The notes beneath the pieces were generated by a model. It had not been told where the DNA came from and ran no database searches. It was given only the letters and a program-made list of their open reading frames with translations. This document shows positions 2,793-43,319 of a DNA stretch of 64,000 bases, piece by piece; position 1 is the stretch's first letter, and each line of letters opens with the position of its first letter. The stretch spans positions 28,460,001 to 28,524,000 of the forward strand of contig CM097885.1 of NCBI GenBank assembly GCA_044892525.1, read 5' to 3'. This stretch comes from Schmidtea polychroa (Eukaryota). Both the position numbers and the translations under genes were made by a program.

Positions 2793-4059
2793 GTAGATTG
2801 GTAAAATAAAATTTTGAAAATAAAAATAAATAATCTCTTATATCAACAAGTAAACAAAATCTTGAGAAGTAACCAATCGGATTTTAATAAATATTATGAC
2901 TTACAAATCAGAATGTTTCATTCCTTTGAAGTTAAAAATATGGATATATTCTGTTTTATTTTCTCTTTTTAAAATAAAGGATAAAATTATAAAAGTGTTG
3001 CAAAATTAATGAACACATGCAAGGAGAAATTCCATGAAATTTAGGAAGAAATATTGTCTGGTATATATGAAATTTTAATGGTATTGATTTTTTGTTTACT
3101 TTTGCCCAGTATATCAACGCGAGAAGGGCGGGGGATTCTAATACCTATGGTGGCGGAGCGATCATCCTTGACTGCAATGCTTTAACCATAAGAATTTATG
3201 TAATTTGCTCTAATAGTAATAAGTCATATTTGATAATGTGAATTTATATTTATTTACTGTTTATTCATTGTAAAATATCAAGCAGAAGCCCTTTGTTTAA
3301 ATACTTTTCGGCTCATTTGAAATAACTGTATCCTAGAACCGAAGACAATCTATCCTTAATATATATGTTGTTTCATTAGTTTAACACACTATCAGTTTCT
3401 AATATTCCTAATATTAACTCAATTTTAAACTTGTATAACATTATAATTTAATATTTTGCTAATTCAAACGCTAATAAACAGCAATCATTGAAAAAGTTGC
3501 GCAAATTTCGGTGCGTAAATCTGTGGTTACGGTGACCTCTCGTATTTTGTGATAAAAATGCGTCAAGATAGAGACTAGGGACCTTACTATGGTGGTGGGG
3601 AAATAATCGCTTCTGCGTGTAAAGGAGGGTTGCAGGCGTTATTTGTAGTTAGAGTGTAGAAAACGACGAGGAGAAGAATTTGGGAAGGTTGAGTTTATGT
3701 AAAAATTTATAAGAAAATATAAATATGATATAATATAATGTGGCAAGGGTGAGATTATATAAAAATTTATAAACGAATAGAAATGTAAATAATATAAATA
3801 AATATAAAATATTATGTAATATAATATTATGAAAGATATATTTAAAATACGACTCGCCCGTTAATCTCGACTCGGTACCGGTTTGATGTTGATTTCTTTG
3901 TCGTTCCACTTCTAACGTTTTTGGCAATTCTTGTGGTCCGTAGTGCTGTGTACGAGTCTCTAACACCAATGTCTCGAGAAATATTGTTTTTAGGAGATCG
4001 ATTGGCAGCAATTTATTCGTCTTATCGAATTCGGTCGGCTGAGAATTGTTTGTCGATGA

Positions 4060-4470
4060 ATCATCGGAATTCAGAATGCAAACATCAATATAAATGTCAT
4101 GCTTCTGTGCTGTAAATACTCCATTTATCATTGACATGAAACACGAAGAACTGTCCGGGAATCCGGTACAAATTATAATAAATCGTCCAGAAAATTCTAA
4201 TTGACAATTATTCAATGAACTAATGATTTTAAACAAGCGTTTAAAATAGCAAAGCGATTTAATGAAACCGCCAGACAAATTGACAGAATTTAAAAGAGAA
4301 TTGCCTCCATTAATCAATTTTTAAATATTTTCACGAATTTTCGTCTCGTAAAACTGTAGGTAGTCATTTTTAGTCGAACAAATTGATGATGAAATAGCGG
4401 ATTTCACATCGGTTGTGTAAATGTATTCGCTTTTTTCAGGACTTCTGACACCAATTATCGTAACTATGAA
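4060..4470 (-). pseudogene. GTF2H3: TFIIH p34 (Tfb4/GTF2H3)-like pseudogene fragment
   Basis: LSGGFIKSLCYFKRL...GRFIII...DSSSCFMSMINGVFTAQKHDIYIDVCIL resembles the Tfb4 vWA region; upstream in-frame VTIIGVRSPEKSEYIY separated by an in-frame TAA at 4323-4321; similarity ends near 4060. Confidence 0.7.
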
Positions 4471-10921: not shown

Positions 10922-10924
<3 letters not shown>

Positions 10925-11747
10925 AAACAAACACCACTGAGATACATTCTCTATAGTGGTGGTTTGTGTGTAGAGCAATTGCTCACTCACCAATTTACTA
11001 CTGAATTGCTCATCATGAAATTTATTTTAGCCATTTTAGAAATGGTTTTCAGGTAAGATATTAAATTTAAAGTAAATTTTAAGACTTGAATTTTGATCCA
11101 TATGGATATGAGATCATTATTCAAGTTCTTAAATATTACTTTTAATCAACATTATAATTATAAATTAATTTTCAGGGTTTTTTAAGGAATTTTATGATAT
11201 TTATCTTGGAATTATTTCGAAAAAACGTGAGTCTGACATATTTTTAATTATAATTAATTAAATAAATTAATCAATCCCAAAAATATGTATATTTTTAAAA
11301 CATTTTGGGATTAAAAATAATTTTTTTAATTTTGTAATTTTTTTTGAGCTCAATATGATGGGATTCTTTAAGGAAATCAAATCTATAGTAAAAATATATT
11401 GAACCAAATTCATCTGCTCTTGATATTTTCATTAAAAATATAATTTTAAAAATTTTCAACGATCTTTTTTTCTAAAAATTGTCTAAAATAGAATTATTAT
11501 AGGAACGTATCTCATCGTTACATTTCTACGAATCAAAAATTTGTATGTGTTTTTTTAATATGTGTTGCGTTTGTGTGCAGTTTTTAATTTTTTTCCACTT
11601 TTCAGATTTCTATAATATAAGATGTATCTCATTGAGCTATAAATGAGAACATCAACGTGAAATCAAAGAAGTATGTATGTTTCTATAATGTAAGATTATT
11701 GATTTTTTTGTTATATTATAGGAAATGGTTCTCAGTGGTGTTTGGTG
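10922..11747. mobile_element. MITE with TIR (CA)CCAAACACCACTGAGA in TA context (Tc1/mariner-like)
   Basis: Left caaacaccactgaga, right tctcagtggtgtttggtg, flanked by TA repeats; diverged second copy at 29157-29927. Confidence 0.75.
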
Positions 11748-12533
11748 TATATATATATATATATGATAAGAACTTGAAGCCACAGAAATAATGACGATAT
11801 TCTTATAGAAAAATCTTTTATGGAGAAATTTAAAATGAAGCAATAATAAAAATTTAATATATGAACTGTGTGTAAAGGTTTTATGTTTCAAAACTTAAAA
11901 GTTTTTATTTAGAAATTGAGAAAGTGGCAGAAAAATAATTTTACATATAGACACAGCACACATAATAAAAATACATACAAATTTTTTATAGCGTTTTTCG
12001 TTTTAAAATTTAAAAGTGATTAACATATTGTTAACATATTATTATTTTCGATATATTAAAAATTCATGGGGGAAAAATGTTTGATCTAGAATTGCACAAC
12101 TCTAGTTTGAGCTCTAGAGAAAAAGACGATAAAACATCGTAAGATTTAATTATAAAATAATTTTACATTTAATATTTATTTAGATTTTCAGATATTTCTT
12201 GTCAAACTCTGTTTTTACGTGAAGGTAAAATTTCAAATATTGAACAAGGTCCTTCGAAATCTTTGGATTTGCAGAAAAGAAATCGTAAATTTTAAAAACC
12301 TATTTAAAAAAATAATATTTTCATAGAATTACAGAACATAACAAAATTCGACTAATTAATGCCTTTGAAAATGTTAAAAATTACGAAGAATTTGGAATGA
12401 AAACGTGAAAAAAACAAATCAACTGTAAAATTCTTATTAAAATATAATTTGTTTTAAAATACAAATTGTGATTAAATATATCTTTTCAAATATTCAAATG
12501 TCTTCAATTAAAGAAAACAATTGTTCTAAAATT

Positions 12534-12680: not shown

Positions 12681-12908
12681 GTGTACTGGGGAGCTAACCT
12701 TGCAGCACGCTAAATATCGGAAAGATAGAATAATTGTACGTTCCACATATTATGAAATTTTATTCCAATTAAAAACTTCGATAAATAAATTTAAATGATA
12801 TTTGCAATTCTATCCATCAGCAGGTTTTCATTCTGTCCAGGTTATTCATTGAATTGGTTTTGAAAAGTTTCTTTCTTTTTCTTCTTGACATTTTTTGAAT
12901 CTTGTTAA

Positions 12909-13138
12909 CCCCTTAACGCACAATTTAAAAAAAAACGACCAAAAAAAATCAATTTTTTTTCTTTAAGAAAATATATATTTGGACCAATTTCAATAAATAA
13001 CAATATAATGTAACAATAAAATAATAATATTTATTAGCTGAAAAATAATAAACTAAAACTATTCAAAAACTATCACGTCACTGCACATTTTGTCCGGTTT
13101 TGCGCGAACGTATATATACGTCAGTGCGCGTTAAGGGG
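12909..13138. mobile_element. piggyBac-type MITE
   Basis: 11-bp TIR CCCCTTAACGC; TTAA on both sides (12905-12908, 13139-13142). Confidence 0.85.
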
Positions 13139-13630
13139 TTAAACTGCTTTTTTCGGGTTATTAAAACAAAATTTATTTATAAAATAGTTTGTATTGAGAA
13201 GGCATTACACCGCGATGCACTGATAATGTTGAAAATGGCATAGATGTCTCAAAATCTTGCTCAAAGTTAGTGCTGAAGATGAAAAAAGGACATGGGCGCA
13301 TGATATTCCCAAAATCCAACTTGGATTACGCAACTGAGCTTGCTTTGAAATTAAAATTAGGCTACATGGTGATAAAGTAATCACACATACTTTATTATAT
13401 TATAACGATGAGTCAAAAACTGAAGAAGGGAAAACGTCTAAATAAATTACTCAATGCAACTCAAATGTATTCTGGTGCTTATTATAATTTAAAAAATTAA
13501 TTGCGTTGTTGGTTATGGAGAACTTTGAGTTTCATTGTCGAAAATATTTGACATTGTCTACCATCCAGGTGGAAAGTCTCAGGTAAAAAATTGATATTTC
13601 AGCGTAGTCAAAATAGCCTATGTGCAAAAA

Positions 13631-14322
13631 AGTAGAGAGAAGTGTGCTCCATGACTCATCGTTTTTTGTCATTTTTTTGCACTACCCCCCCCCCGATGAC
13701 TCAGCGCAAAACAAAGACATATGACTCATCGATGACTCATCCATAGCAACCGTGGTAACTGGATCAAGGTCATATGACTCACCCATAGCAACCGTGGTAA
13801 CCATGGTAACTAGATCAAGGTCGCATGACTCATCCATAGCAACGGTGGTCCTTATGGCAACTAGGTCAAGGTCATTCTATTTTTAGTAACAAGGTCACAT
13901 GAAGTCATCGATGACTCATCAAGGTCATTCTATTTTTAGTAACTAGGTCATATGGCTCATCATTTTTAAACAAAGACGATGACTCATCATTAAAGTACAT
14001 ATGACTCATCACCTTTGATCCTGCCCGATGACTCATTCTTAAAGTATGTATGACTCATCATTTTTTAAACAAAGACATTTAATATTTAAATAAATACATT
14101 TAAACAAATATTTAAATAAATACATTTTAACAAATATTTAAACAAAGACATTTAATCAAATATTTAAACAATGACATGTAAACAAATATTTAAATAAATA
14201 CATTTAAACAAATATTTAAACAAAGACATTTAATCAAATATTTAAATAATGACATGTAAACAAATATTTAAATAAATACATTTAAACAAAGACATATAGA
14301 CAAAGACTCATCGATGACTCAT
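13631..14322 (+). repeat. Left terminal inverted repeat
   Basis: Reverse complement of 26935-27661, with differences in internal repeat copy number. Confidence 0.9.
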
Positions 14323-14489
14323 AGTTTAAATAAGGAGTTATTATTTTTTTTGTGCACTATCCCCCACCTGTATGACTCATCGATGACTTCTTTGAACAAA
14401 GACCAATCATTTATTTTTAAGACAAAGACTATCACACACGATTAGAACGATGACTCAGGACTCCACTAGAACAAAGATGTTATTATAAA

Positions 14490-14950
<461 letters not shown>

Positions 14951-15649
14951 AATGTAATATTATTATTTTATTATAATTATTATTATTACTATTATTACTA
15001 TCAAATTAATATTATTTCAAAATATTATTTCAAAGTAATAAAAAATAATAATAAAAAATAAAATAATAATAACGAAGTAATAAAAAACATTACCATTTCT
15101 GATATAATTTTCTCCATAAAAACATATTCTTCATAAAAAAAATTCATAATAAAATTTCATAAAAATTCATAAATTGATTTCATAATTTCTAAAAAACATT
15201 ATAATTAAAAACATAATAATTGATATTTACTTTTTCATCCACGAGCATTTTGAAAAAAGCATAGAGTATATGTAACGTCTATCCAATCAGAATACAGATA
15301 GGATAGAGAAATATACACACACATACTCTATGCTTTGTTCTAAAATGATGAGTCATCAATGACTCACATAGTAACAAATAATGTCTTTGTTACTCATTGT
15401 CTTTGTTTAATTTACACGTGACATGAGTTCAACATGTCTTTATAATAATAATATTTTTGTGAATAATAATAAAATCAATTAATTAATTAATAATAATAAA
15501 ATTAATAATAAAATTAATTAATTAATAATAATTATAATAAAATAATAATAAAAAATAGTATTACTTTGAAAAATAATAATAATATTACTTTGAAAATAAT
15601 AATAAAATATATATATATATCAAATAATTTAAATGCAAATCAATATAAT

Positions 15650-15991
15650 AAAATGGTGGGTCCCTCAAAAAATCTTTTCAAACCTTATAATTCGAAAGGT
15701 ATTTCAGAGGTCTATCTAATGGTCATATCTTCGAATGGTATAACCTTCAAAGGGTCATAAACCTTCGAATTTTTTCAAACCTTATAATATATATATATCA
15801 AACAAAAGGAAATTCAAAAATGAGTATGATGGTCCAAGTTTAAAGGGTCCAAGGTTCAAATTTTGAAAACCTTATAATATACATATCAAACAAAAGGTAA
15901 TACAAAGATAAGTATGATAGTCCAAGGGTCGAAGGTATATGGTGTGTCAATAACCTTCAAAGGGTCAAAAACCTTCAATTTTTTTCAAACT

Positions 15992-16022
<31 letters not shown>

Positions 16023-16170
16023 CATTCGAAAGGTATTTAAGAGGTCTATCTAATGGTCATATCTTCGAAGGTGTATGGTTTGTCAATAACCTTCAAAGGG
16101 TCAAAAACCTTCAATTTTTTTTTAAAATCTCATAATATACATATCAAACAAAAGGTACTACAAAGGTAGT
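15650..16170 (-). repeat. Short inverted copy of the ~120-bp satellite of the right arm
   Basis: e.g. GAGGTCTATCTAATGG is the reverse complement of CCATTAGATAGACCTC at ~26090 and ~26338. Confidence 0.8.
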
Positions 16171-16234
16171 CATCGCTGACTTTTTATAACAAAGACAATG
16201 ACTCATCATTTTTAAAACAAAGACATCTGTTTTC

Positions 16235-16258
16235 AGAATGACGCGCCCATGGGATTTA

Positions 16259-16327
<69 letters not shown>

Positions 16328-18147
16328 ATTATATTCATGTCTTTGTTAATCATGCACTTTTATTGCAAAGTCTTTGTTAATTATGCAAGTGTATTGCAAA
16401 TTTATTAGTCATACCTTGATATTAATTTTACACACATACTCAATCCATTATTATTATTGCAAGTATTAGAGATAAACCTAAAATATTTACACACACAAGT
16501 CTATTCGAAAGTATACATGCTAGGATTACACACCTTAAGGGTAGAAAAATATTTCTGAGTGATTGTGTGTGCAATAGCCAAAAATAATAATTTTTATCAA
16601 ATTCATGTAAATTTTTTAAAAAAATCTATGTGTGTGTTATTGGTAGAGTGTGTGTGTGTAAAATATAAAATTTTATCAAATACATGTAAATTTAGTTAAA
16701 TTTTATGAAAAATCTATGTTTTCTGTGTGTGTGTGTTATGGGTAGAGTATGTGTGTGTGTGTGTAAAAATTTTATCAAATACATGTAAATTTCTTTAAAA
16801 AATCTATGTGTTTGTGTGTTATGGGGTATAGAATTATTATGTGTGTGTGTAAAAATTTTATCAAATTTCTTTAAAATTTATAAAATATCTATGTGTGTGT
16901 GTTATGGGGTAGAGTATGTGTGTGTGTAAAAATTTTATCAAATTTATGTAAATTTAGTTAAATTTTATGAAAAATCTATGTTTTCTGTGTGTGTGTGTGT
17001 TATGGGTAGAGTATGTGTGTGTAAAAATTTTATCAAATACATGTAAATTTCTTTCAAAAATCTATGTTTTCTGTGTGTGCTATGGTTAGAGAATTATTAT
17101 GGGTGTATGTGTGTACAAATAATAAATTTTATAAAAATCATGTAAATTTCTTTAAAAATCTATGTTTTCTGTGTGTGTGTGGTATGGGTAATTATTATGG
17201 GTGTGTAAAAAAACTTTAATCAAATACATGTAAATTTCTTTCAAAAATCTATGTGTGTGCTATGGTTAGAGAATTATTATATGTGTATTTGTGTACAAAT
17301 AATAAATTTTATAAAAATCATGTAAATTTCTTTAAAAAATCTATGTTTTCTGTGTGTGTGTGCTATGGGGTAGAGTATGTGTGTGTAAAAAAACTTTTAT
17401 CAAATACATGTAGATTTCTTTAAAAAATCTATGTGTGTGTGCTATAGAGTAGAGTATGTGTGTGTGTGTGTAAAAAACTTTTATCAAATACATGTAAATT
17501 TCTTTCAAAAATCTATGTTTTCTGTGAGTGCTATGGTTAGAGAATTATTATGGGTTTATGTGTGTACAAATAATAAATTTTATAAAATTCATGTAAATTT
17601 CTTTAAAAATCTATGTTTTCTGTGTGTGTGTGTGTGGTATGGGTAATTATTATGGGTGTGTAAAAAACTTTTATCAAATACATGTAGATTTCTTTCAAAA
17701 ATCTATGTGTGTGCTATGGTTAGAGAATTATTATATGTGTATTTGTGTACAAATAATAAATTTTATAAAAATCATGTAAATTTCTTTAAAAAATCTATGT
17801 TTTCTGTGTGTGTGTGCTATGGGGTAGAGTATGTGTGTGTAAAAAACTTTTATCAAATACATGTAAATTTCTTTCAAAAATCTATGTTTTCTGTGTGTGT
17901 ATGTGTGTGTTATGGGGTAGAGTGTGTGTGTGTGTAAAATATTTTATCAAATTTCTTGAAAAATCTATGTTTTTGTGTGAATTGTACATGTATTGCACAT
18001 GCTTATTTTAACACGGGTATATATGCTTAATATGTGATTATACTCTGAGTTTATCCGACAAGATATTTTGTCCCCCTATGGGTAATGTTCACACTCAACA
18101 TGTTGCAAGTGTACTGCTCACAAGGGTATTATTATTATTATTATTAA

Positions 18148-18219
<72 letters not shown>

Positions 18220-18330
18220 CACAAGCTCACACTCAACATTTCTCAAAGGGTATAAATTCTGACCAATCAATTAAGGAGTAGAACAAAAATATATTGCGTT
18301 GCGGTATTTTAAAACTTAAATATATTTTGA
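16235..18330 (+). repeat. Left inner arm incl. ~60-80-bp GT-rich minisatellite (16590-17975)
   Basis: Reverse complement of 21230-23165 (shared GACGCGCCCATGGG, ACACCTTAAGGGTAG, and the identical MGNVHTQHVASVLLTR pseudo-ORFs on opposite strands). Confidence 0.9.
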
Positions 18331-18353
18331 TACCATTTTCAACATTTTCATCA

Positions 18354-18416
<63 letters not shown>

Positions 18417-18893
18417 ATTATTATTTATTATTGCAAATATTTACACGCACACAAGTTATGGGGTAGATAATTATTGTGTGTGCAATAGGCAAAAATAATA
18501 AATTTTATAAAAATCTTGTAAATTTCTTTAAAAAAATCTGTGTGTGTGTGTTATGGGCTAGAGAATTATTATGTGTGTGTGTGTAAAAATATGAAATTTT
18601 ATCAAATTTCTTTAAAATTTATGAAAAATCTATGTGTGTGTGCATTGTACATATATTACACATTCCTATTTTAACACGGACGTATATGCTTAATATGTGA
18701 TTATTATATAAATACTCTTAGTTTATCATTATTATTACCACAAGCTCACACTCAACATGTCTCAAAGGGTATAAATTCTGATCAATTAAGTGGTAGAACA
18801 AAAATATATTACGTTGCGGTATTTTAAAACTTAAACACATTTTCACACAAGGTACAGCTCACATGCAATATCTCACAAGGGTATTAATATTAA

Positions 18894-18939
<46 letters not shown>

Positions 18940-19003
18940 ATTATTATTATTATTATTATTATTATTATAATTATTAATATCAATGTTATATTATTATTTT
19001 TCA

Positions 19004-19055
<52 letters not shown>

Positions 19056-20156
19056 AATAATATCAATGTCATATTATTATTTTTCAAACTAATATTATTA
19101 TTATTATTATTATTATAGAGCGATTCAGTATCATTTATTACGCAGTATTTTACGTTGCAGTATTTTAAATTAATGAGTTTTTATTATGTGATGTTCAAAT
19201 ATATGTGTGGATGCAAATATTTGTTTAAAATTTTCATCAGTGTATCCTCAATTTTAAATTAATTTGATATATTAATTAACTGAAAACTTTATTTCACTTG
19301 AAATTCATCATATTACTCCATGTAAATTAACCAAACGATCATGTCTCTATAATAATAAAAAATAGAAATTTGACAAAAATTACTCCAAATGATAAAGAAT
19401 TTATACCAAATTTATTAATGAATTGTCAATAAATGATCATGTATTTCTCACAAAGATATAAATTAACCAATGAATTTATTAATTATTGTCTGAAAATATT
19501 ATTTTAAATGACATATTTAACCAATATTCTTCGCACAAAATATTCATGTTTTGGTAAATGTTGCTCAAAAATCTTAACTTATTCTCACAAAGATATATTA
19601 CAATGATAATAAATTAGAATTCTAACTAATAAACACCTTAATTGGTTAACCAGATGATCATATTTCTATTATGACTCGAACAAAGATTTTTACTCCAAAG
19701 AATCAATGTTGTTATTAATGTATTTCTCACGAAGTTAACTATTGTAATGAACATTAGATGAATAAATTACCTATGAAAATATTTTACTAAATTACCTTTT
19801 AAATGACAAAGTTAATCAATAAATTAATCGTTCGAAATAAGAATAAAGTTACATTTCAAATATTACCCAAATATTTCTCACTAAATTACCTAAGAATTTA
19901 TATATATACATGTGCCTTAATTACCCTAGCGACCAGTACCTTTACGACAAATACCCATAGGGGGACAAAATATCTTGTCGGATAAACTCTGAGTATATAA
20001 AAGAACTTACAATCTTTATTGATTAATTTGTTGTATATATATTTGCATTGACACATCAAAATGTCAGATAATATTTATAAATTAACTAAAAAATATACAA
20101 AATAGCAATAAATGTGCATGATTCAAAAAAAGACACTAGAAATTTGTATTGAGAAA

Positions 20157-20795
20157 TTACATATATATAGTATGATATTCATTAATCAAAGTTGAACAGG
20201 CTTGACAATTGCGAACATTCTTCTCGTGACACTTAGAACAAACAATTACATGACCACACGGTAAAAACAAAACCGAAACTTGATTTTCTTTACAGATTGA
20301 ACAAGTTAAATACATTTTCTTAACATCGTTCAGTTTTTCCGTTAGTTTATTTTCAATCAAATCGACTTTCGCCATCCATTCATAAATCAATCTACTATAT
20401 CCCGGTTTCAATCTTAAATACATGCAACTCCAAAAGTATTCATTTAGTGTATCGTTGTTTACCACTGTTTTTTCAAAATACATTAAATAACTAAACTTCA
20501 AAATACATTTATCATAATTAAATAAATCAATCAAATATTCAATAGAGGAATGTTTGAAAATTTTTAAAACATTTATGATTTTCTTATCAGTGTAAGCATC
20601 ATGATTATTTATAAAATCTTCAACTATGTTAAAAAATTTCAATGAGCGATTATCTTCAGAATAGGATAGACTTAATCTTTCATTATTTCGAGTTCCTTGC
20701 TATAAATCACAAAAAAATTGATAAAATAATAAAGTTACCAAATACATTTTGTGATTTACACAATCATATTCAACAGTTTTACTTGTAGAAATCAT
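20157..20795 (-). CDS. IAP-type C3HC4 RING-finger protein without BIR domain, ~199 aa; exons 20795-20739 and 20699-20157
   Basis: C-terminal CSICKENQVSVLFLPCGHVIVCSKC...CQAC...TIYM* is the IAP/MDM2-like terminal RING; 39-bp GT-AG intron 20738-20700 removes the in-frame TAG and links to ATG 20795. Confidence 0.8.
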
Positions 20796-21019
20796 CAGTA
20801 ATAACTAAATTACTTTTGTTTTTACATTTATCACAATAGATATAACCAATCAAATTAGAATTTTCAAAATGTAATCGATGAGTCACGTGACCTTGATGAG
20901 TCATATGACCTTGAATGAGTCATACTTTATAAAATAAGAATTTTGAAGAAAATAATCATGAAAAACAATGAAAATATTGCTTATTACAACATTCGGATAC
21001 CCTATATAAAACCCATCGA

Positions 21020-21090
<71 letters not shown>

Positions 21091-21229
21091 ATTGAAAATA
21101 ACTTTGAAAATAATATATTCATGCAAATGATAAAAATGTTGAAAATCATGAAATCGATGCAAAAATTATGAAAATAATTATGAAAATGTTCTTGCATCTA
21201 ATGAAAATGGCGTCAAAATATGTTTTGAA

Positions 21230-21376
21230 AATAAGATTTTAACATACCACAACGTAATATATTTTTGTTCTACCCCTTCATTGATTAGTCAGAATTTAAT
21301 AATATGCCCTTTGAGACATGTTGTATATGAGCATTATCCATCCGGGGACTAAATATCTTGTCGGATAAACTCTGAG

Positions 21377-21439
<63 letters not shown>

Positions 21440-23013
21440 CCTTGTGAGCAGTACACTTGCAACATGTTGAGTGTGAACATTACCCATTATCTTGTCGGAT
21501 AAACTCAGAGTATAATCACATATTAAGCATATATACCCGTGTTAAAATAAGCATGTGCAATACATGTATAATTCACACAAAAACATAGATTTTTCATAAA
21601 TTTTAAAGAAATTGGATAAAATTTCATATTTTTACACACATACACACACAATAATTCTCTACCCCATAGCACACACACATACACACACAGAAAACATAGA
21701 TTTTTGAAAGAAATTTACATGTATTTGATAAAAGTTTTTTACACACACATACTCTACCCCATAGCACACACACACAGAAAACATAGATTTTTTACAGAAA
21801 TTTACATGATTTTTATAAAATTTATTATTTGTACACAAATACACATATAATAATTCTCTAACCATAGCACACACATAGATTTTTTAAAGAAATTTACATG
21901 TATTTGATAAAAGTTTTTTACACACCCATATTAATTACCCATACCACACACACACACAGAAAACATAGATTTTTAAAGAAATTTACATGATTTTTATAAA
22001 ATTTATTATTTGTACACACATACACCCATAATAATTCTCTAACCATAGCACACACAGAAAACATAGATTTTTGAAAGAAATTTACATGTATTTGATAAAA
22101 GTTTTACACACACACATACTCTACCCCATAGCACACACACACATAGATTTTTTAAAGAAATCTACATGTATTTGGTAAAAGTTTTTTACACACACATACT
22201 CTACCCCATAACACACACATATATAGATTTTTCATAAATTTTAAAGAAATTTGATATAATTTTTACACACATATACAATAATTCTCTACCCCATAGGACA
22301 AACACACATATAGATTTTTTAAAGAAATTTACATGTATTTGATAAAATTTTTACACACACACATACTCTACCCATAACACACACAGACACAGAAAACATA
22401 GATTTTTCATAAAATTTAACTAAATTTACATGTATTTGATAAAATTTCATATTTTTACACACACATACTATACCCGTAACACACACACATAGATTTTTCA
22501 TAAAATTTAACTAAATTTACATGTATTTGATAAAATTTCATATTTACGCACACACATACTATACCCGTAACACACAAACACAAAAAAACATAGATTTTTC
22601 TTAAAATTTACCTAAATTTATACATGTATTTAATAAAATTTCATATTTTACACACTCACACTCTACCAATAACACACACATAGATTTTTTAAAAAAATTT
22701 ACATGTATTTGATAAAATTTATTATTTTTGGCTATTGCACACACAATCACTCAGAAATATTTTTCTACCCTTAAGGTGTGTAATCCTAGCATGTATACTT
22801 TCGAATAGACTTGTGTCTGTGGAAATATTTTAGGTTTTTCTCTAATACTTGCAATAATAATAATGGATTGAGTATGTGTGTAAAATTAATATCAAGGTAT
22901 GACTAATAAATTTGCAATACACTTGCATAATTAACAAAGACTTTGCAATAAACGTGCATGATTAACAAAGACATGAATATAATATTAATAATAATAATAA
23001 TAATAATAATAAA

Positions 23014-23056
<43 letters not shown>

Positions 23057-23165
23057 TTAATATTAATAATAATAAAAATAATAATAATACTATTGATAAT
23101 AATAAATAATATTGATAATAATAATAATTTTGATATTAATAATAATAAATCCCATGGGCGCGTCA
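21230..23165 (-). repeat. Right inner arm incl. CA-rich minisatellite
   Basis: Reverse complement of 16235-18330. Confidence 0.9.
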
Positions 23166-23689
23166 TTGTCTTTGTTCAAAAAATAAATGAGTCATCGATG
23201 AGTACTTTTGTATTGCCGTTTGTTGGATAGATGTCTTTGTTACTAAAAATAGAACGACAAAAAAAATAATATAATCAACGATTTAAACAAAATTAAATTA
23301 TTACGTAATCGATTATTAAAACAAAAATAAACCGCCGGAACAAAAATAGATGTCTTTGTTACTAAAAATAGAACGACCTTGGTGACTCAGCGGCTGAGTC
23401 TTTGTTTAAATTACCTTGATAATTAAAACTTGATGATAATAATAATATTAATAATAAATTTTGATAATATCTTCGAAAATAATAATAATACTATTGATAA
23501 TAATAAATAATATTAAAATTAATAATAATAAATAATAATAATACTAATGATAGTAATAAATAATAAATCCCATGGGCGCGTCATTGTCTTTGTTCAAAAA
23601 ATAAATGAGTCATCGATGAGTACTTTTGTATTGCCGATTGTTTGATATGTATATTACAAGGTTTGAAAAATTTAAACCTTGGATCCTTA

Positions 23690-25880
23690 GACTCTTTGAC
23701 CTTCAAACTTGGACCATGATACTTACATCTCAAATACCTTTTGTTTGATATGTATATTATAAGGTTTTAAAACTTTTGAACCTTGGACCCTTTCGGTGGT
23801 ATGACCTTTGAGGGTATGACCATCATACTCACCTTTGTATTACCTTTTATTTGACATGTATATATCTATATGTATAATTTTTAAAGGTTTTGGACCCTTT
23901 GAAGGTTTGAAGGTTCAGGACCATTCATAAACCTTTGAAAGTATGACCATGATACTTACATCTCAAATACCTTTTGTTTGATGTATATTATAAGGTTTTA
24001 AAAATTTTGAACCTTGGACCCTTTCGGTGGTATGACCTTTGAGGGTATGACCATCATACTCACCTTTGTATTACCTTTTATTTGACATGTATATATCTAT
24101 ATGTATAATTTTTAAAGGTTTTGGACCCTTTGAAGGTTTGAAGGTTCAGGACCATTCATAAACCTTTGAAAGTATGACCATGATACTTACATCTCAAATA
24201 CCTTTTGTTTGATGTATATTATAAGGTTTTAAAAATTTTGAACCTTGGACCCTTTCGGTGGTATGACCTTTGAGGGTATGACCATCATACTCACCTTTGT
24301 ATTACCTTTTATTTGTCATGTATATATCTATATGTATAATTTTTAAAGGTTTTGGACCCTTTGAAGGTTTGAAGGTTCAGGACCATTCATAAACCTTTGA
24401 AAGTATGACCATGATACTTACATCTCAAATACCTTTTGTTTGATATGTATATTATAAGGTTTTAAAACTTTTGAACCTTGGACCCTTTCGGTGGTATGAC
24501 CTTTGAGGGTATGACCATCATACTCACCTTTGTATTACCTTTTATTTGACATGTATATATCTATATGTATAATTTTTAAAGGTTTTGGACCCTTTGAAGG
24601 TTTGAAGGTTCAGGACCATTCATAAACCTTTGAAAGTATGACCATGATACTTACATCTCAAATACCTTTGTTTGATGTATATTATAAGGTTTTAAAATTT
24701 TTGAACCTTGGACCCTTTCGGTGGTATGACCTTTGAGGGTATGACCATCATACTCACCTTTGTATTACCTTTTATTTGACATGTATATATCTATATGTAT
24801 AAATTTTAAAGGTTTTGGACCCTTTGAAGGTTTGAAGGTTCAGGACCATTCATAACCCTTTGAAAGTATGACCATGATACTTACATCTCAAATACCTTTT
24901 GTTTGATGTATATTATAAGGTTTTAAAAATTTTGAACCTTGGACCCTTTCGGTGGTATGACCTTTGAGGGTATGACCATCACTCACCTTTGTATTACCTT
25001 TTATTTGACATGTATATATCTATATGTATAATTTTTAAAGGTTTTGGACCCTTTGAAGGTTTGAAGGTTCAGGACCATTCATAAACCTTTGAAAGTATGA
25101 CCATGATACTTACATCTCAAATACCTTTTGTTTGATGTATATTATAAGGTTTTAAAAATTTTGAACCTTGGACCCTTTCGGTGGTATGACCTTTGAGGGT
25201 ATGACCATCATACTTACCTTTGTATTACCTTTTATTTGTCATGTTTATATCTATATGTATAATTTTTAAAGGTTTTGGACCCTTTGAAGGTTTGAAGGTT
25301 CAGGACCATTCATAAACCTTTGAAAGTATGACCATGATACTTACATCTCAAATACCTTTGTTTGATGTATATTATAAGGTTTTAAAATTTTTGAACCTTG
25401 GACCCTTTCGGTGGTATGACCTTTGAGGGTATGACCATCATACTCACCTTTGTATTACCTTTTATTTGACATGTATATATCTATATGTATAATTTTTAAA
25501 GGTTTTGGACCCTTTGAAGGTTTGAAGGTTCAGGACCATTCATAAACCTTTGAATGTATGACCATGATAATTACATCTCAAATACCTTTTGTTTGATATG
25601 TATATTATAAGGTTTTAAAACTTTTGAACCTTGGACCCTTTCGGTGGTATGACCTTTGAGGGTATGACCATCATACTCACCTTTGTATTACCTTTTATTT
25701 GACATGTATATATCTATATGTATAATTTTTAAAGGTTTTGGACCCTTTGAAGGTTTGAAGGTTCAGGACCATTCATAAACCTTTGAAAGTATGACCATGA
25801 TACTTACATCTCAAATACCTTTTGTTTGATATGTATATTATAAGGTTTTAAAATTTTTGAACCTTGGACCCTTCGACCCT
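23690..25880 (+). repeat. Tandem satellite, ~231-bp unit, ~9.5 near-identical copies
   Basis: GGACCCTTTCGGTGG recurs at 23785, 24016, 24247, 24480, 24710, 24941, 25170, 25400, 25633. Confidence 0.95.
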
Positions 25881-25916
25881 TGGACCTTTGAACTCACCAT
25901 CAAAAGTCCTTTTGAA

Positions 25917-26019
<103 letters not shown>

Positions 26020-26039
26020 GATTTGAAAAATATTTAATT

Positions 26040-26855
26040 TTGGACACCCTTTGAAGTTATTGACCCACCATATACCTTCGAGGGTATAGCCATTAGATAG
26101 ACCTCTCAAATACCTTTCGACTGATATATATATTATAAAGTTTGAAAAAATTCGAAGGTTTTTGACCCTTTGAAGGTTATTGACCAACCATACACCTTCG
26201 AGGGTATGACCATCATACTTACCTCTCAAATACCTTTCGACTGATATATATATATATATATTATAAAGTTTGAAAAAATTCGAAGGTTTTTAACCCTTTA
26301 AAGGTTATTGACCAACCATACACCTTCGAGGATATGACCATTAGATAGACCTCTCAAATACCTTTCGACTGATATATATATATTATAAAGTTTGAAAAAA
26401 TTCGTAGGTTTTTTACCCTTTGAAGATCGAGGACCCACCATTCACCTTCGAGGGTATGACCATCATATTTACCTTTGTATTACCTTTTGTTTGATAAATA
26501 TATTATAGTTTGAAAAAATTCGAAGGTTTTGTACCCTTTGAAGGCCAAGGACCCACCATTCACCTTCGAGGGTTTGACCATCATATTTACCTCTCAAATA
26601 CCTTTCGAATGATATATATATATTATAAAGTTTGAAAAAATTCGTAGGTTTTTTATCCTTTGAAGATCGAGGACCCACCATTCACCTTCGAGGGTATGAC
26701 CATCATATTTACCTTTGTATTACCTTTTGTTTGATAAATATATTATAGTTTGAAAAAATTCGAAGGTTTTGTACCCTTTGAAGGCCAAGGACCCACCATT
26801 CACCTTCGAGGGTTTGACCATCATATTTACCTCTCAAATACCTTTCGAATGATAC
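26040..26855 (+). repeat. Tandem satellite, ~120-bp unit, ~7 copies, related to the half-unit of the 231-bp satellite
   Basis: ACCTTCGAGG...GACCATCATA recurs about every 120 bp. Confidence 0.9.
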
Positions 26856-26934
26856 CCTTGTGTGAAGGTTTGGCCTTATTTGACCTTTGGAAATTTAAAT
26901 ATGACCTTGACCTTAAAACACGACACTGACCTCG

Positions 26935-27661
26935 ATGAGTCATCGATGAGTCTTTGTCTATATGTCTTTGTTTAAATGTATTTATTTAAATATTTGTTTA
27001 TATGTCATTGTTTAAATATTTGATTAAATGTCTTTGTTTAAATATTTGTTTAAATGTATTTATTTAAATATTTGTTTACATGTCATTGTTTAAATATTTG
27101 ATTAAATGTCTTTGTTTAAATATTTGTTTAAATGTATTTATTTAAATATTTGTTTAAATGTATTTATTTAAATTTTTGTTTAAATGTATTTATTTAAAAA
27201 TTTGTTTAAATGTATTTATTTAAATTTTTGTTTAAATGTATTTATTTAAATATTTGTTTTAATGTCTTTGTTTAAATATTAAATATGTCTTTGTTTAAAA
27301 AAATGATGAGTCATATGTACTTTAACAATGAGTCAGTTGGCTTTGTTTCAAAAATTATGAGTCATATGACCTTGTTACTAAAAATAGAATGACCTTGACC
27401 TAGTTACTAAAAATAGAATGACCTTGGTGAGTCATCGATGACGTCACGTGACCTAGTTACTAAAAATAGAATGACCTCGACCTAGTTACCGTGGTTACCA
27501 CGGTTGCTATGGATGAGTCATATAACCTTGACCCAGTCACCGCTGTTGCTATGGATGAGTCATCGATGAGTCATATGTCTTTGTTTTGCGCTGAGTCATC
27601 GGGGGGGTAGTGCAAAAAAATGACAAAAAACGATGAGTCATGGAGCACACTTCTCTCTACT
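26935..27661 (-). repeat. Right terminal inverted repeat
   Basis: Reverse complement of 13631-14322. Confidence 0.9.
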
Positions 27662-27799: not shown

Positions 27800-28912
27800 G
27801 GACCAACCTGTTTTTTTGATGCATTAAATAAAAATAATATTTATTGAAATTTTAACAGCACCAAATATATATTAATTAATTTTTTAATCCCCTTAAAATG
27901 GATATTGATAGAATAATTAAAATGAATGAAGAAGAGCTCATATATTTTATGAAAGACAATGACATGTTAACAAATGAATTAGAATGCTATTCTTGCCAAA
28001 AAGAAATGATACTAGTAAAGACAAAAAGAAATTATGATTGTATGTGTTGGAGATGCCGATTATCTGAGTGTATAAAACGAGATTATTATGTTTCGGTTAG
28101 AGAAAATAGATTTTTGAGAAGATAAGGATACCTCTCAAAGAAATTTTAAAATTTCTATTTTATTGGTCGAAAGGTTGCAAAGTGCTGAAATTTTGAAGTT
28201 TGTGAAAATTAAAGAAGATTCAATACGAAAGCTAAGACAATTGCTTATTTCAGCAATCAAAAACCATAACGAAGCGCATCCTTTTCTGTTAGGATGTCCA
28301 GGAAAGCTCGTGTAGGTAGACGACACCATGCTGAATCACAAGGTGAAGGCACACAGAGGAAGCCCCAAAAAACAAATTTTGGCATTGGTTATTGTTGATT
28401 GCTCTTTTTCACCAGCGAAAGGCTACATGTGCCTTGTTCCTGATAAAAAAGCTGAAACAATAATACCAATTATAGAGAAATATGCGAGAAAAGGTTCAAT
28501 TATCCATACAGACGATGCAAAAATCTATAGACAAGTAGATAAAAAGGCATCTTATGAACACAAATCAATTGTTCATAAATATAAATTCGTGGATTATAAA
28601 AATGGCGTTCACACCCAGAACATCGAAAGTTACAATAACAAAATAAAGCTAAATATAAAAGAAATGCGGGGTATAAAAGATAATTGCCGAGAAAATTTTC
28701 TTGTGGAGTTTATGTGGTTGGATAATGACAAAAATGATTGTTTTGAAAAAACATTATATTTGATTAGAAAGTTCTAAGTTATTAATTTGTTATGTTATTA
28801 ATGTTTAAAAGTTATTTTCTGATTTTATAATATTGTGATTTTATTTAAAACAATAATATAAGTTATGATTTATTTATAAAAAAAATTCTGGGTCAAAAAA
28901 TTGGGATGATCC
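27800..28912 (+). mobile_element. Merlin (IS1016/ISXO2-like) DNA transposon with inactivated transposase (27898-28777)
   Basis: 8-bp TSD GAAATTTT (27792-27799, 28913-28920); imperfect TIRs GGAcCAaCC..TTTTTTGA; zinc ribbon CYSC...CWRC; DDE motifs VDDT, IIHTDD, GVHTQNIES; frameshift and stop codons. Confidence 0.85.
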
Positions 28913-29156
28913 GAAATTTTTATGCAAATTCATCAAGCAGTACTTTGAAACTTTCATTTGTTTTTTTAAATGTAATATTTCAAAATACATTTGTTTTAAT
29001 AATTATTTTCGGCACGAATTATATTAATTAATATCTAATTTTAAAATTTTAATTGAAATTACATTTTACTTTCAATTTGAGAATTATTTGGGAGTTATTT
29101 TGAATCTATATACCTCTAATTTAATTCCGCTTTAAAGCCAGGAAATATTTAAAAAT

Positions 29157-29927
29157 ATAATATAAGAAAAATCAATAATCTTACATTATAGAAACATACA
29201 TACTTTGATTTCACGCTGATGTTCTTATTGATAGTGCAATGAGATACATATTACACTATCGAAATCTAAAAAATGATAGAAAAATTAAATACTGCACACA
29301 AAACACATACATACTTTCGATTCATAGAAATGCGCCTCTGACAAATGTTTCTATAATAACTTTATTTTAGACAAATTTTAGAAAAAAAATGATTTCTGAA
29401 AATGTTTTTAAATGTATTTTTTAAAGAAACTACGTTAAATTGTCATGAAAATGACGAAATATCATCGTAAGAATAATTTGGAGTTAAAATTAAGTTCATT
29501 AACATTTCTGATATTTGTTTTAGAAATATCTTAGATAAATTGATTTTTGGCAATTGATTTAATTATTTCATTATAATTAAAAATATATCTGACTTATATT
29601 ATATCAAAATAATTCCAAAAAACTTCAAAATAAATTTTATAAAATTCCTAAAATAATCTTAAAAATAATTAAAAATAATTTATAATACAATTGTTGACTA
29701 AAAGTAATATTTAAGAACTTGAATATTAATCTCATATCTATATAAATCAAAATTCAAGTCTTAAAATTTACTTAAAATTAAACATCTTACCTGAAAGCCA
29801 TTTCTAAAATGACTAAAAATTTTAATAGACAAATGAAATTTATTAAATTGGTGAGTCAATTTAACGAGACCAATTGGTGTACACACTAACCACCACTATA
29901 GAAAATGTATCTCAGTGGTGTTTGGTG
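29157..29927. mobile_element. Truncated diverged copy of the 10922-11747 MITE (inverted)
   Basis: Collinear reverse-complement similarity; one end TCTCAGTGGTGTTTGGTG-TA. Confidence 0.75.
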
Positions 29928-31290
29928 TATTATATTACTAAAATATTACAGTAATTATGCTGATTATTTTTTTACTTACCGGTGCTGTTTCCTCTTACAA
30001 TTCCACGCACTTTCGTTTTCTGATAGTTGCCGTTGTTGGCTACTTCTGTAAACGACTATTAGATTAAGTGTTGAATAAGTGTCCCTTTAAGCTACAATCA
30101 TTTAATTTATTTTTTTATGTAGACAAGTTTACTAATGACACACGACACAATGGTGATTTTTCCATTCGAAAACGAATTAGTTCAGGATACCTGATAAAGA
30201 AGTTATTCAGTTAAAAGGTTAATTTTAATACATTTATTAACATATATAAATAATAAAAGTTTAAAATGATAATATATATATTTATTTAAAATTTAATAAA
30301 CTTTAAAATTCATTGTTATTATTTTTTAAATTTTATATTTATCTAAAAATATTTTATTAAAATCTTTTATTAATTTAAATAAAAATCAAGATAATTTGAG
30401 TCTACATAAATGATATTATGTGCATGAAGTCAAAATCACGGGCAAAAGCGAAATACAATCCGGTTCTATCCACAAACATCGTGATGAAAAATAGGCATAC
30501 AATTTTGTTTTAATCATGTATCGGTGTAATTTCTATACAGACTCAAAATATATCACTTGAATATGATGTCTAATTTGTCTGTTTATAACAGATTCAATTT
30601 GGAAATGGTGTGCTAAAAATCAATTGCGTGTAACTTTCATTAAAATTAACTCTTAGTAAAATCTCCTATTTATTTTGATCATCTTTAATCTGTTTACTTT
30701 TTTTGATATTTTCTTTGTGTTCCTTTTTGTAAGTTAAGTTGCTAATTGTTTCTAAAATTTTGTAATATGGAATGTTATACATTCTGTATTTATTAAAAAT
30801 ACTGCCAAATATTTATCTATTTTCAAACCAATTTAAAATATAATATTTCCTTAGCATCATATATCAATCTTTTGACATCTTTCAATATTGGAAAGTAATA
30901 AACAAAACCTTTTTGTATTTATCTAAAAATATTTTATTAAAATCTATTATTAATTTAAATAAAAATCAAGATAATTTGAGTCTACATGAGTCTAATGAGT
31001 AAGAATTTTGATTAATCTACTTTTGAGACCTTTCAAAATTGAAGAATTTTGAGAAATGTAATTAACAAAATTGAAAATTTAAATAAATATTTATGATATC
31101 TATTTTTCCCAATAATTATTAAATTAAAATTATCATTTAAAAAAGATTTAAATACAATATTTGAAAATTTCATTTTTTTAAAATAATTAAAAAATAATTT
31201 TAATATTTTTATCCAATCAAATTTGTAATAAATAAATGTTAAAAGAATGTTATCTCTTTTCAAATAATCAAAATTCCAGACATCATTAAA

Positions 31291-32133
31291 ATGATTCTAA
31301 ATGAAAGTTACGAATTTATTTCAAAACTTCAGGCATCGGTAAGGAGTACCATTTACAAAGCACGGAACAATTCGAAGCAAAATCTAAGCCACAAAACAGT
31401 TGTAATTAAAAGTATTATTAAATCCAAATCCGAATTGTTTATTGACAGTAAAGACTATTCCTTTCCTATACCAAAAGAAATGCATTTTATCAAATTAATT
31501 AATAATGTAAAATTCTGTCCAAAAATTCTCGACTATTTTCAAAATGAAACAGAATTTTCAATCGTTATGGAAAATTTAGATGGAGATTGGATAGATATGC
31601 ACCATTTTATGTCAAAAAGCCCACAAAGTGAAAATATTTTAAGAAAAATTGTAAAAAATATCGTTTTAGTTTTAGAAAATTTAATCTGTAAAGGTGTTTA
31701 TCATTTAGACATAAAACTCAAAAATATTATGATCAATCAAGCTACTTACAAAATAAAATTCATAGATTTTGAAAGTTCTCTTTATGATATAATAAACGAA
31801 AATCCTACTCACAAAGGTTTTGTCGGTACTATCGGATATTCGAGTTATGAAGCTGTCAAAGGTGTGACATACGATGTCAAGAAAAATATGGTATTTGAAA
31901 TCGGATGCTTAATATACATTTGTATTGAGCGTAAAAGTATCTTTAAAAATATTAAAGAATATGACTATGTTCGACATATTTTCTTTTTAAAATCTTCCAA
32001 AAAAGCTCAAAGTCTCATCAACAAATGTATCACCTTCAATGTAGAAGAGAGATTAGATCTAAATAAAATATTAAGTCAAAGTTGGTTTCAAAAAGCGTCT
32101 ATAAGGGAGAATATGTCAAAAATGATTGTTTAA
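31291..32133 (+). CDS. Intronless Pim/CAMK-like Ser/Thr kinase-fold protein (possible pseudokinase), 280 aa
   Basis: VVIK, IPKE (alphaC), YHLDIKLKNIMI, KFIDFE, FVGTIGYSSYE, ERLDLNKILSQSW. Confidence 0.85.
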   Translation: MILNESYEFISKLQASVRSTIYKARNNSKQNLSHKTVVIKSIIKSKSELFIDSKDYSFPIPKEMHFIKLINNVKFCPKILDYFQNETEFSIVMENLDGDWIDMHHFMSKSPQSENILRKIVKNIVLVLENLICKGVYHLDIKLKNIMINQATYKIKFIDFESSLYDIINENPTHKGFVGTIGYSSYEAVKGVTYDVKKNMVFEIGCLIYICIERKSIFKNIKEYDYVRHIFFLKSSKKAQSLINKCITFNVEERLDLNKILSQSWFQKASIRENMSKMIV

Positions 32134-40272: not shown

Positions 40273-40976
40273 GTTTCAGCTTGTTCCTTATTATAATCAA
40301 TTAAATTATCATTGTTTAACAATTTCTTAATTACAAAATTCAAATTATGCTTGCTTTACGTAATAATAAAATAGTCAAGGCATTTGCAATTTTGATATTA
40401 ATACAATTATTGATCATAAATATTTGAAATTGATTTCAATATACAAATTTTAGTGGAATAGTTAATTCAATGAATTGATCATAATTTGAATATTTATTAA
40501 ATTTTAATGCAAAATGAGTCTTTACATTATCATTAATAAGTAAATAATAGCTAATTACTCTATTTCAGTGGTGCCCAACCTAGTGCCCGCGGGCAAAAAA
40601 GTGCCCGTGGAGAATTTTTCAAATGCCCGTGGGTGTTTTTCTAAATACGGTTAAAGAAAATATCAATTTTTAGCATTAAGATGTATAATGTTTCAATGAG
40701 AATTACAAGCGCATTTTTAATTTTCGAAATTAAAATTAATCAATCCCAACAATTAATTATTAAATGGGAATTCCAAGAAAATTAAATTTTTTCCTACTTT
40801 AAAATAAAATTAATTAATTTTTTCTATTAACTAATTTTTCAAAAATGTGCCCGCAAAGACTTTTTCATTTAAATAGTTGCCCACTTGATAAAAAGGTTGG
40901 GCACCACTGCTCTATTTGGACCTTCATTAATTACTACGATTCAATGACTAGTTTTTAGTACTTTGAAAATGTAATT
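40273..40976 (+). repeat. ~350-bp direct repeat copy 1 (interrupted by MITE)
   Basis: Nearly identical to 42968-43319 once 40566-40917 is removed; older diverged copy at ~39850-40090. Confidence 0.9.
40566..40909. mobile_element. hAT-type MITE
   Basis: 16-bp TIR CAGTGGTGCCCAACCT; perfect 8-bp TSD CTCTATTT; empty site present at 43253-43260. Confidence 0.95.
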
Positions 40977-42735: not shown

Positions 42736-42967
42736 AGAGGTATAATTATTATATAAGAGGTCAATTATTACATAAGGGGGTCAATTATGACGAAAATTTA
42801 AAAAATCAATTATTACATAATCAAAAATATAATTACGCCATTTTATATGTAATTACGTAATTTCCAAAATTATGTAACACCATATCACCCCCTAGGGTAC
42901 CCATACACATATTACACAATACTGTATATTTGGCTTGGTTTATACTCCTCACTTCTCACTACTACAT

Positions 42968-43319
42968 GTTTCAGCTTGTTCCTTATTATAATCAATTAAA
43001 TTATCATTGTTTAACAATTTCTTAATTACAAAATTCAAATTATGCTTGCTTTACGTAATAATAAAATAGTCAAGGCATTTGCAATTTTGATATTAATACA
43101 ATTATTGATCATAAATATTTTAAATTGATTTCAATATACAAATTTTAGTGGAATAGTTAATTCAATGAATTGATCATAATTTGAATATTTATTAAATTTT
43201 AATGCAAAATGAGTCTTTACATTATCGTTAATAAGTAAATAATAGCTAGTTACTCTATTTGGACCTTCATTAATTACTACGATTCAATGACTAGTTGTTA
43301 GTACTTTGAAAATGTAATT
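42968..43319 (+). repeat. ~350-bp direct repeat copy 2 (MITE-free)
   Basis: See 40273-40976. Confidence 0.9.

Follow-up and report, generated by a model that had tools for sequence, protein, structure and literature searches.

A BIR-less IAP-type RING gene, possibly a decoy, on a non-autonomous Maverick-type fold-back element

A gene for a short RING protein lies within a 14-kb fold-back element in the 64,000-nt stretch of DNA that we analysed (the window). We propose that a non-autonomous Maverick/Polinton satellite has kept this gene as its only cargo and that the gene encodes a decoy derived from IAPs. The decoy function is one that we infer from the sequence, and we give the whole reading a probability of roughly 0.4. 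The predicted protein has a UBA-like helical domain (this part is probable), a long helix, and an IAP-type RING, and the simplest reading is that it is an IAP that lost its BIRs. A preliminary description of this locus had already called the gene cargo, and it does ride on a Maverick-type fold-back element, while a relative sits in a contig of Polinton type. The Maverick-type ends with their target-site duplication, the UBA-like domain, and the eroded E2 surface go beyond that description. (Throughout, what we say of cited papers refers to the portions of their text that were available.)

The element is set out in Table 1. Its termini are complementary at 60 of 60 nt, and at 97 of 100 when aligned. 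In the self-comparison, the inverted arms are nested, and 4091 of 5870 bases are tiled at 72-97% identity between the left and right arms. The flanking 6-bp words are identical; two random 6-mers from the window match 0.13% of the time, and the A-rich CAAAAA is commoner than the average word. The Mavericks of vertebrates have terminal repeats of 46-1,447 bp, 6-bp duplications, and ends of the form (AGT)2//(ACT)2 or (AG)3//(CT)3 (PMC8097293). The element likewise has terminal inverted repeats and a 6-bp duplication, and its end, AGTAGA, has five of the six letters of (AGT)2 and then an AG run. However, its arms span nearly the whole element, far past the vertebrate range. Also, where a Maverick or Polinton has genes for pPolB, an integrase, an ATPase, and a capsid, we found no polymerase, integrase, ATPase, or capsid ORF inside the element. 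Because the polymerase, integrase, and capsid genes are absent, we regard it as a non-autonomous derivative and not as an intact Maverick. The RING gene sits in the unique 1.9-kb core, and it is the sole non-repetitive ORF of at least 100 aa within 13631-27661, so for ORFs of that size the earlier claim that nothing else in the 14 kb is both intact and non-repetitive was right. Part of the unique core (19150-19952), translated in all six frames across its stop codons, has no match in Pfam. The 23-nt arm word that brackets the gene cassette is also found at 21489 and, inverted, at 18042.

Table 1. Features of the fold-back element and its RING gene, in positions of the window.
Feature	Position	Strand	Basis or remark
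Non-autonomous fold-back element with Maverick/Polinton-type ends, 14,031 bp	13631..27661	.	Self-BLAST arms; ends 5'-AGTAGAGAG...CTCTCTACT-3'
Left copy of the target-site duplication, CAAAAA, 6 bp	13625..13630	plus	
Right copy of the target-site duplication, CAAAAA	27662..27667	plus	
Left arm: terminal repeat, 26-bp and ~90-bp arrays, ATT runs	13631..19117	plus	
Right arm, longer owing to 231-bp (x9) and 122-bp (x7) arrays	21019..27661	minus	
Gene cassette flanked by two direct copies (at 19972 and 21355) of a 23-nt word of the arms	19972..21377	minus	
Candidate promoter: three TGACTCA and two AGGTCA words	20879..20922	minus	84-127 nt before the ATG
Putative exon 1	20739..20795	minus	19 codons, starts at ATG 20795
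Putative GT-AG intron of 39 nt in phase 0; alternatively, the last part of an outron that precedes a trans-splice acceptor	20700..20738	minus	
Main coding exon	20157..20699	minus	180 codons and stop
Probable UBA-like three-helix domain, exon-2 residues ~48-93	20421..20558	minus	Profile-profile comparison and model helices
Long helix into the RING, residues 101-130	20310..20399	minus	AlphaFold2 model
IAP-type C3HC4 RING with aromatic C-terminal tail; loop-2 Pro, next hydrophobic residue, and linchpin Arg absent	20160..20303	minus	
Candidate polyadenylation signal, AATAAA	20015..20020	minus	~137 nt past the stop; sequence only

The window is AT-rich DNA of animal type (17-43% GC per 2-kb bin), probably from a planarian-like host, and parts of it match genes for a rhodopsin-family receptor, for Tfb4, and for a METTL23-like methyltransferase. 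The Tfb4 match (3649-4320, minus strand) is partial, covering 116-187 of the 273 profile positions, and then gives way to unrelated sequence; it is possibly a captured or retro-copied fragment. In the region of the METTL23-like gene, a 398-codon ORF (41664-42860, plus strand) lies between 293-bp direct repeats that are 99% alike (40273-40565 and 42968-43260). It has no Pfam, PDB, or PHROG match, and we take its motifs to be those of a family B DNA polymerase of the Polinton type. Just right of the element is a broken ISXO2/Merlin-like transposase (27900-28777, plus strand; PF12762, E = 4.8e-13), and an intronless protein kinase ORF of 296 codons (31243-32133, plus strand; PF00069, E = 4.4e-27) stands alone among repeats. 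A short element at 12907-13142 has inverted ends and TTAA flanks and is presumably piggyBac-like. Four related ORFs on the minus strand (47011-47334, 49400-50167, 53375-54133, and 62186-62554) have a coiled-coil-like motif in common; the two that were scanned have no Pfam match, and they are probably the first ORF of a repeat family. Finally, an 800-bp MITE-like repeat with TA-flanked ends is present in two inverted copies, 72% alike (10922-11750 and 29156-29935). We considered this pair (10914-11720/29156-29935) as the ends of an outer Merlin element and rejected the idea because the left copy bears its own TA-flanked inverted ends.

The identification of an IAP-type RING in the preliminary description is well founded: the RING matches PF13920 (E = 3.6e-10, above the curated cut-off), and its best PDB matches are cIAP1, cIAP2, and XIAP. 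The profile of the family matches the cIAP RING with E = 3e-15. The AlphaFold2 model (mean pLDDT 87.9) has five helices and the RING, and in a fold search its RING resembles those of cIAP2, IDOL, cIAP1, XIAP, and BIRC7 (Z about 7, rmsd 1.4-2.1, 51-61 residues). Foldseek gives E = 1.8e-4 and a TM-score of 0.82 against the RING of cIAP2, and IDOL/MYLIP scores close behind the IAPs in fold searches. We agree, too, that the protein is BIR-less, as there was no match to a BIR in the window protein or among the 25 families shown, of 36, for 21 aligned members. Where a profile search picked up longer proteins, these align to no more than 22-38% of the query, and the protein's matches in the ESM Atlas are all below 0.9. 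A link to baculoviruses had also been suggested. The RING is indeed in common, but RING proteins of baculoviruses and of other viruses match with query TM-scores of just 0.24-0.33; because this is about what a RING alone gives, the link amounts to a shared RING and nothing beyond.

The UBA-like domain is a weaker match, which counts against the decoy reading. A UBA profile built from 11 stretches of IAPs aligns to the family with a score of 19.4 over 45 columns (probability 25%), as compared to at most 11.1 for 60 shuffles and 13.3 for the reversed sequence. A BLASTP alignment to an IAP starts at the place of this domain and is in the same register, as is the alignment to cIAP1, which is not significant. 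Neither Pfam (no match to PF21290) nor the fold search recognised the domain; no UBA structures were among the matches listed in two wide fold searches; the UBA profile gave no significant match to single members of the family; and the window copy has Asn where the UBA motif has Gly. As for the structure check that had been proposed for the N-terminal part, the AlphaFold2 model has helices there, and a single-sequence model of this part (pLDDT 56) had no fold match above background (best Z of 5.2). Overall, the protein is like cIAP1, cIAP2, and XIAP (BIR-UBA-RING) in the sequence and fold of its RING, in the preceding helix, in the aromatic tail, and probably in the UBA-like domain. It differs from them in that BIR and CARD domains are absent, the E2-facing residues are lost, and it belongs to a clade of its own that is found in mobile elements. 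Because the IAP family is described as requiring at least one BIR (PMC13159474), the window protein, which has none, falls outside of that definition. A UBA ahead of the RING is optional among IAPs.

A search of 1.84 billion representative proteins gave 450 matches with E of at most 0.001, and among the 150 that were listed, there are at least about two dozen short proteins in which the similarity goes past the RING or that have the same tail. The proteins of this clade are about 130-200 aa long and BIR-less, and the 20 that we looked up are unnamed or hypothetical entries from ENA, JGI, Logan, or MetaClust. In a tree of 66 RINGs, 24 family rows fall on one side of a branch with support of 96/94, apart from 31 IAP-like rows and 11 others. 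The tree was computed from few columns. Its bootstrap has not settled, and the family rows were picked by their likeness to the query; these two points also weigh against the decoy reading.

What distinguishes the clade from the BIR-containing IAPs is the surface that faces the E2. Loop-1 Ile/Val is present in 7 of 24 family rows versus 28 of 28 BIR-IAPs; the loop-2 Pro in 0 of 24 versus 21 of 28; Ile, Val, Leu, or Met at the position after it in 8 of 24 versus 25 of 28; and the linchpin Arg in 1 of 24 versus 23 of 28. In contrast, the dimer position has Leu, Met, Ile, or Val in 23 of 24 family rows (versus 23 of 28), and all 22 of the complete family tails have the aromatic residue. In the window protein, loop 2 has Gln-Ala and the linchpin is Ser, while the loop-1 Ile is kept. 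Relative to cIAP2, on which we checked the numbering, it has Ala in place of Ile590 and Leu at the dimer position, Val568. For cIAP2 itself, L585A/I590A is a published mutant in E2 binding, and Val568 is a dimer position (PMC3172091). The preliminary description offered two options, a dominant negative or action on other substrates. Because residues needed to bind and activate E2~ubiquitin have been lost across the clade while dimer residues have been kept, we favour a dominant-negative or decoy protein. The loss of the Arg does not prove inactivity by itself because XIAP, with a Tyr as its linchpin residue, remains active, which is a point against the decoy reading; more broadly, the linchpin tunes activity, and the effects of changing it range from mild to abolishing (PMC12326332).

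The alternative that we take most seriously, while thinking it unlikely, is that the protein is an E3 ligase that is atypical yet active. It would be a RING homodimer that relies on the tail aromatic and works with a non-standard E2, the helical domain would serve as a receptor for the substrate or for ubiquitin, and the target for degradation would be a host defence or death factor. The zinc ligands are invariant or nearly so across the family, the tail aromatic is kept, the RING is confidently modelled and matches cIAP2, IDOL, and BIRC7, and the window copy keeps the loop-1 Ile. Furthermore, both XIAP and yeast Doa10 work without a linchpin Arg (PMC12326332). However, three to four E2-facing positions drift together across the clade, and another E2 surface should show conserved residues of its own. 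The only family-specific residue is a Glu in the tail, in 22 of 24 rows.

Variation among copies of the element bears on whether the protein is made at all. Contigs from four sequencing runs fall on the 1.9 kb with the gene, and they number 404, 30, 15,310 (run X2, which may be the source of the assembly), and 2,392 (run X3). Among the 40 single-letter differences listed, of 122, 10 of 21 substitutions in the main exon are silent and none creates a stop. The expected silent share is 18-29%, which gives p = 0.002-0.05, depending on the transition bias. Among the 12 indels listed, of 24, all three coding indels are in frame, versus one of seven outside of coding sequence, and of the two that fall in the putative intron, one removes a single nucleotide. 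We conclude that the RING gene is a multi-copy family under constraint at the protein level, although the differences listed do not tell us in which type of element selection acted. Loose contig ends at 20142, 20397, 20493, and 20630 represent paralogues that diverge from the window copy. Separately, X2 and X3 contigs join 19769-19778 back to 19494, that is, a non-coding segment of the core is tandemly repeated in other copies.

These data are also where a relic passenger must be considered. Under this alternative, which we rank just after the atypical ligase and also doubt, the gene worked in an autonomous Maverick or a related virus, the leftover in the satellite yields no protein, and the TAG at 20702-20700 simply closes the frame. 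The excess of silent changes could then come from master elements, exon 1 is without constraint, and some copies skip the gene: two joints in X2 run from about 19970 to 20803 or 20929. Nor did we see splicing, which favours the relic and counts against the decoy. This check used contigs only, and that X1 and X6 are RNA is a guess. The joint of 20739 to 20699 is absent among the 15 contig joints listed, of 42, and one X1 contig, with its ends placed at 20686 and 20812, is unspliced across the donor. On the other hand, the 180-codon frame is intact even though the arms have diverged to 72-97% identity, the differences listed include no stop and no coding frameshift, and intact relatives exist at 88% identity (P0001 and P0154).

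The preliminary description had joined an ATG exon to the main exon by a 39-bp intron. The frame, the ATG at 20795, the GT-AG stretch, and the predicted product of 199 aa are all as described, and on this sequence the putative intron is plausible; it is the splicing that the joints listed do not bear out. The putative intron runs from GTAACT to TTTATAG (20738-20700) and its pyrimidine tract is 75%. Its length is a multiple of 3, and its sole in-frame stop is the TAG of the acceptor, at which no variant was among the differences listed. It was said to be similar in size to the METTL23-like introns, which is so, but at 39 nt it is shorter than all three of these (44, 42, and 45 nt). The alignment of a 198-aa relative (P0004) follows the register that the 199-aa form predicts (query 20 against subject 39). 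Exon 1 itself has no similarity to the N-termini of five relatives, all 4 of its listed substitutions change the residue, and it has an in-frame 6-nt deletion among the copies. There is more support for the acceptor at 20700 than for exon 1. One X6 contig has a loose poly(T) end at 20334; since the genome has a run of A there, this is a weak hint of sense RNA.

Instead of cis splicing, AG 20700 could be an acceptor for a spliced leader, whose terminal AUG would start a 181-aa protein; exon 1 and the 39-nt intron would then be incidental. This is a question of gene structure and fits either function of the protein. Spliced leaders of flatworms end in AUG and can start ORFs (PMC9851317). The phase-0 acceptor is followed by 72 codons without an ATG, exon 1 is unconstrained, and a 1-nt deletion in the putative intron (6 contigs of X2 and 1 of X3) suits an outron as well as an intron. 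Also, in all four metagenome contigs of one lineage of relatives (L002, L003, L005, and L015), the family gene begins with a T-rich stretch and TAG, then ATG, as do 12 of the 21 ORFs there. Against this, a donor and in-frame ATG exon of like kind precede just 3-7.5% of the 227 pyrimidine-rich AGs in the window, which is the rate expected by chance, P0004 is in the register of the longer form, and a flatworm host is itself only probable. We think that cis splicing from ATG 20795 to AG 20700 is probable. We are doubtful about spliced-leader trans-splicing at AG 20700, and doubtful to the same degree that the site is used in neither way.

Upstream of the gene are TGACTCA words, which we take to be AP-1-like sites. 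This word occurs 38 times in the window versus 4.8 expected, and 33 of the 38 are inside the element, which makes up 22% of the window; it fills the ends of the element, and three copies of it lie before the ATG. There is no TATAAAC box in the candidate promoter region (20879-20922). A host-serving gene, that is, a family acting as a stress-induced survival factor like the B-IAP of Burro1, with amplification of the satellite tolerated or selected, is favoured by the AP-1-like words and the very many copies and has a planarian precedent (described in PMC13465017), but we consider it improbable given that there is no BIR for binding caspases and that the relatives sit in mobile contexts.

Full members of the family were found in 7 of 80 metagenome loci (we kept 80 of 405 confirmed stretches). 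One contig, L009, is a Polinton-type element, judging from its predicted genes: in order, a dual-specificity phosphatase, an unknown gene, a TRAF-like gene, the family gene, an A32-like ATPase (a weak match, E = 6e-6), two unknown genes, an rve-chromo integrase, and then a further gene. The last protein is presumably penton-like. The Atlas matches of the neighbours are unnamed. In L009:155-6801, most genes, including the family gene, are preceded by TATAAAC or CATAAAC. We recognised no mini-TBP in this contig; the ORF at L009:803-1288, a candidate, had no such match. An acceptor-like word also precedes the L009 gene, but with a TATAAAC box only 34 nt ahead of the ATG we do not count it as evidence of splicing. 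In L002 and L015, the family gene is directly before a TRAF-like gene, and the cluster includes a DEDD exonuclease and, in L015, a RING-H2 gene as well. L003 and L005 are close relatives of these without a TRAF at that place. These four contigs have a gene-dense cluster (RING-H2, the family gene, TRAF-like, coiled-coil ORFs, and DEDD exonuclease), which suggests a trans-spliced or leader-spliced mobile element or virus. In another contig (L001:340-945), the RING of the family member is broken at the C-terminal end; an acceptor-like word lies near the 5' end, and a strong donor lies 410 nt ahead of an acceptor-like word.

A TRAF-like neighbour is therefore in view in two lineages of contigs and not for every relative, and tblastn of the window found no TRAF or Polinton core gene of L009. 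Both results count against the decoy reading. In the viral contig collection, we found no relative of the family, of the terminal 31-mer, of the TRAF or integrase of L009, or of the PolB-like ORF, and there was no phage match. Because cIAPs work with TRAF2 through BIR1 (PMC3172091), the pairing of the family gene with a TRAF-like gene suggests a shared pathway rather than contact.

If the decoy reading is correct, then the element would move with the enzymes of autonomous Mavericks in the same genome. Host polymerase II would transcribe the gene from the upstream AP-1-like words, probably under stress, and AG 20700 would be the splice acceptor. The RING would use the conserved strand and the aromatic tail to form pairs, either homodimers or dimers with a different IAP-type RING, and would recruit or activate E2~ubiquitin poorly, while the UBA-like domain may dock on ubiquitylated complexes. 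The protein would thus damp ubiquitin signalling via TRAF/IAP-type complexes (cell death, JNK, and NF-kB) where the element or its helper is active, and this would help such cells to survive and the element to spread. It is a problem for this idea that RING-bearing IAPs are reported to be lost in the flatworms sampled (PMC13159474; the available text does not mention planarians), so the cellular partner may not exist in a flatworm host. The B-IAP carried by Burro elements or RINGs of the IDOL, MEX3, or MUL1 type are candidate partners.

IAP-like cargo is already known from adintoviruses and from the planarian Burro1; what is new is probably a BIR-less and, by its residues, probably inactive form that is kept on a non-autonomous satellite. 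Adintoviruses carry Bcl2 and IAP homologues (Starrett et al. 2021, PMC8502044), and our relative L009 sits in such an adintovirus/Polinton element. In the text available to us, that IAP is described in one sentence and a label in Fig. S2, while here the gene for a BIR-less protein is the sole gene of a non-autonomous fold-back element. Burro elements carry BIR, RING, MATH/TRAF, and Bcl-2-like domains (PMC6431247), and the B-IAP of Burro1 is described as protecting stem cells (Lee et al. 2026, as described in PMC13465017). Burro1 is a transposon of what is probably the same animal group, with IAP-derived, TRAF-like, and Bcl-2-like cargo, but Burro is an LTR retrotransposon and B-IAP has a BIR and a RING, whereas our gene lacks a BIR and sits in a DNA element. 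Inactive RING partners such as MDM4 and BMI1 also keep their dimer contacts and activate E2s poorly (PMC12326332). These are scaffolds that help an active partner, in an unrelated context, and the window protein might either inhibit or assist. Among the open-access papers that searches listed, no title or opening of an abstract was about Mavericks with a BIR-less UBA-RING family or about palindromic satellites that bear a gene; a description of either could be in subscription papers, Repbase entries, or supplements.

A broader possibility, which we consider quite unlikely as a whole, is that animal Mavericks and related elements share a previously undescribed family of IAP-derived pseudo-ligases (a UBA-like domain, a helix, and a RING without an E2 surface) that act with the elements' TRAF-like proteins as a decoy kit for signalling. 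A helper-dependent palindromic satellite would have kept the gene under selection, would turn it on through AP-1-like words that its termini also have, and would tune cell death with it. The protein might do so by pairing with the RING of the IAP carried by Burro, which would be the main RING-IAP remaining in a host lineage whose own were lost. Even the narrower decoy reading, if true, would mean that mobile DNA has a new way to steer cell death, namely by jamming or assisting the dimers of IAP-type RINGs rather than with a caspase-binding BIR. It would also mean that a useful gene can persist on a Maverick satellite that is non-autonomous, a point of relevance to the question of whether such giant palindromes are small selfish genomes or junk. 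And a planarian-like host with a transposon-borne IAP that reportedly protects its stem cells would have a second IAP fragment, opposite-looking, in its mobile DNA.
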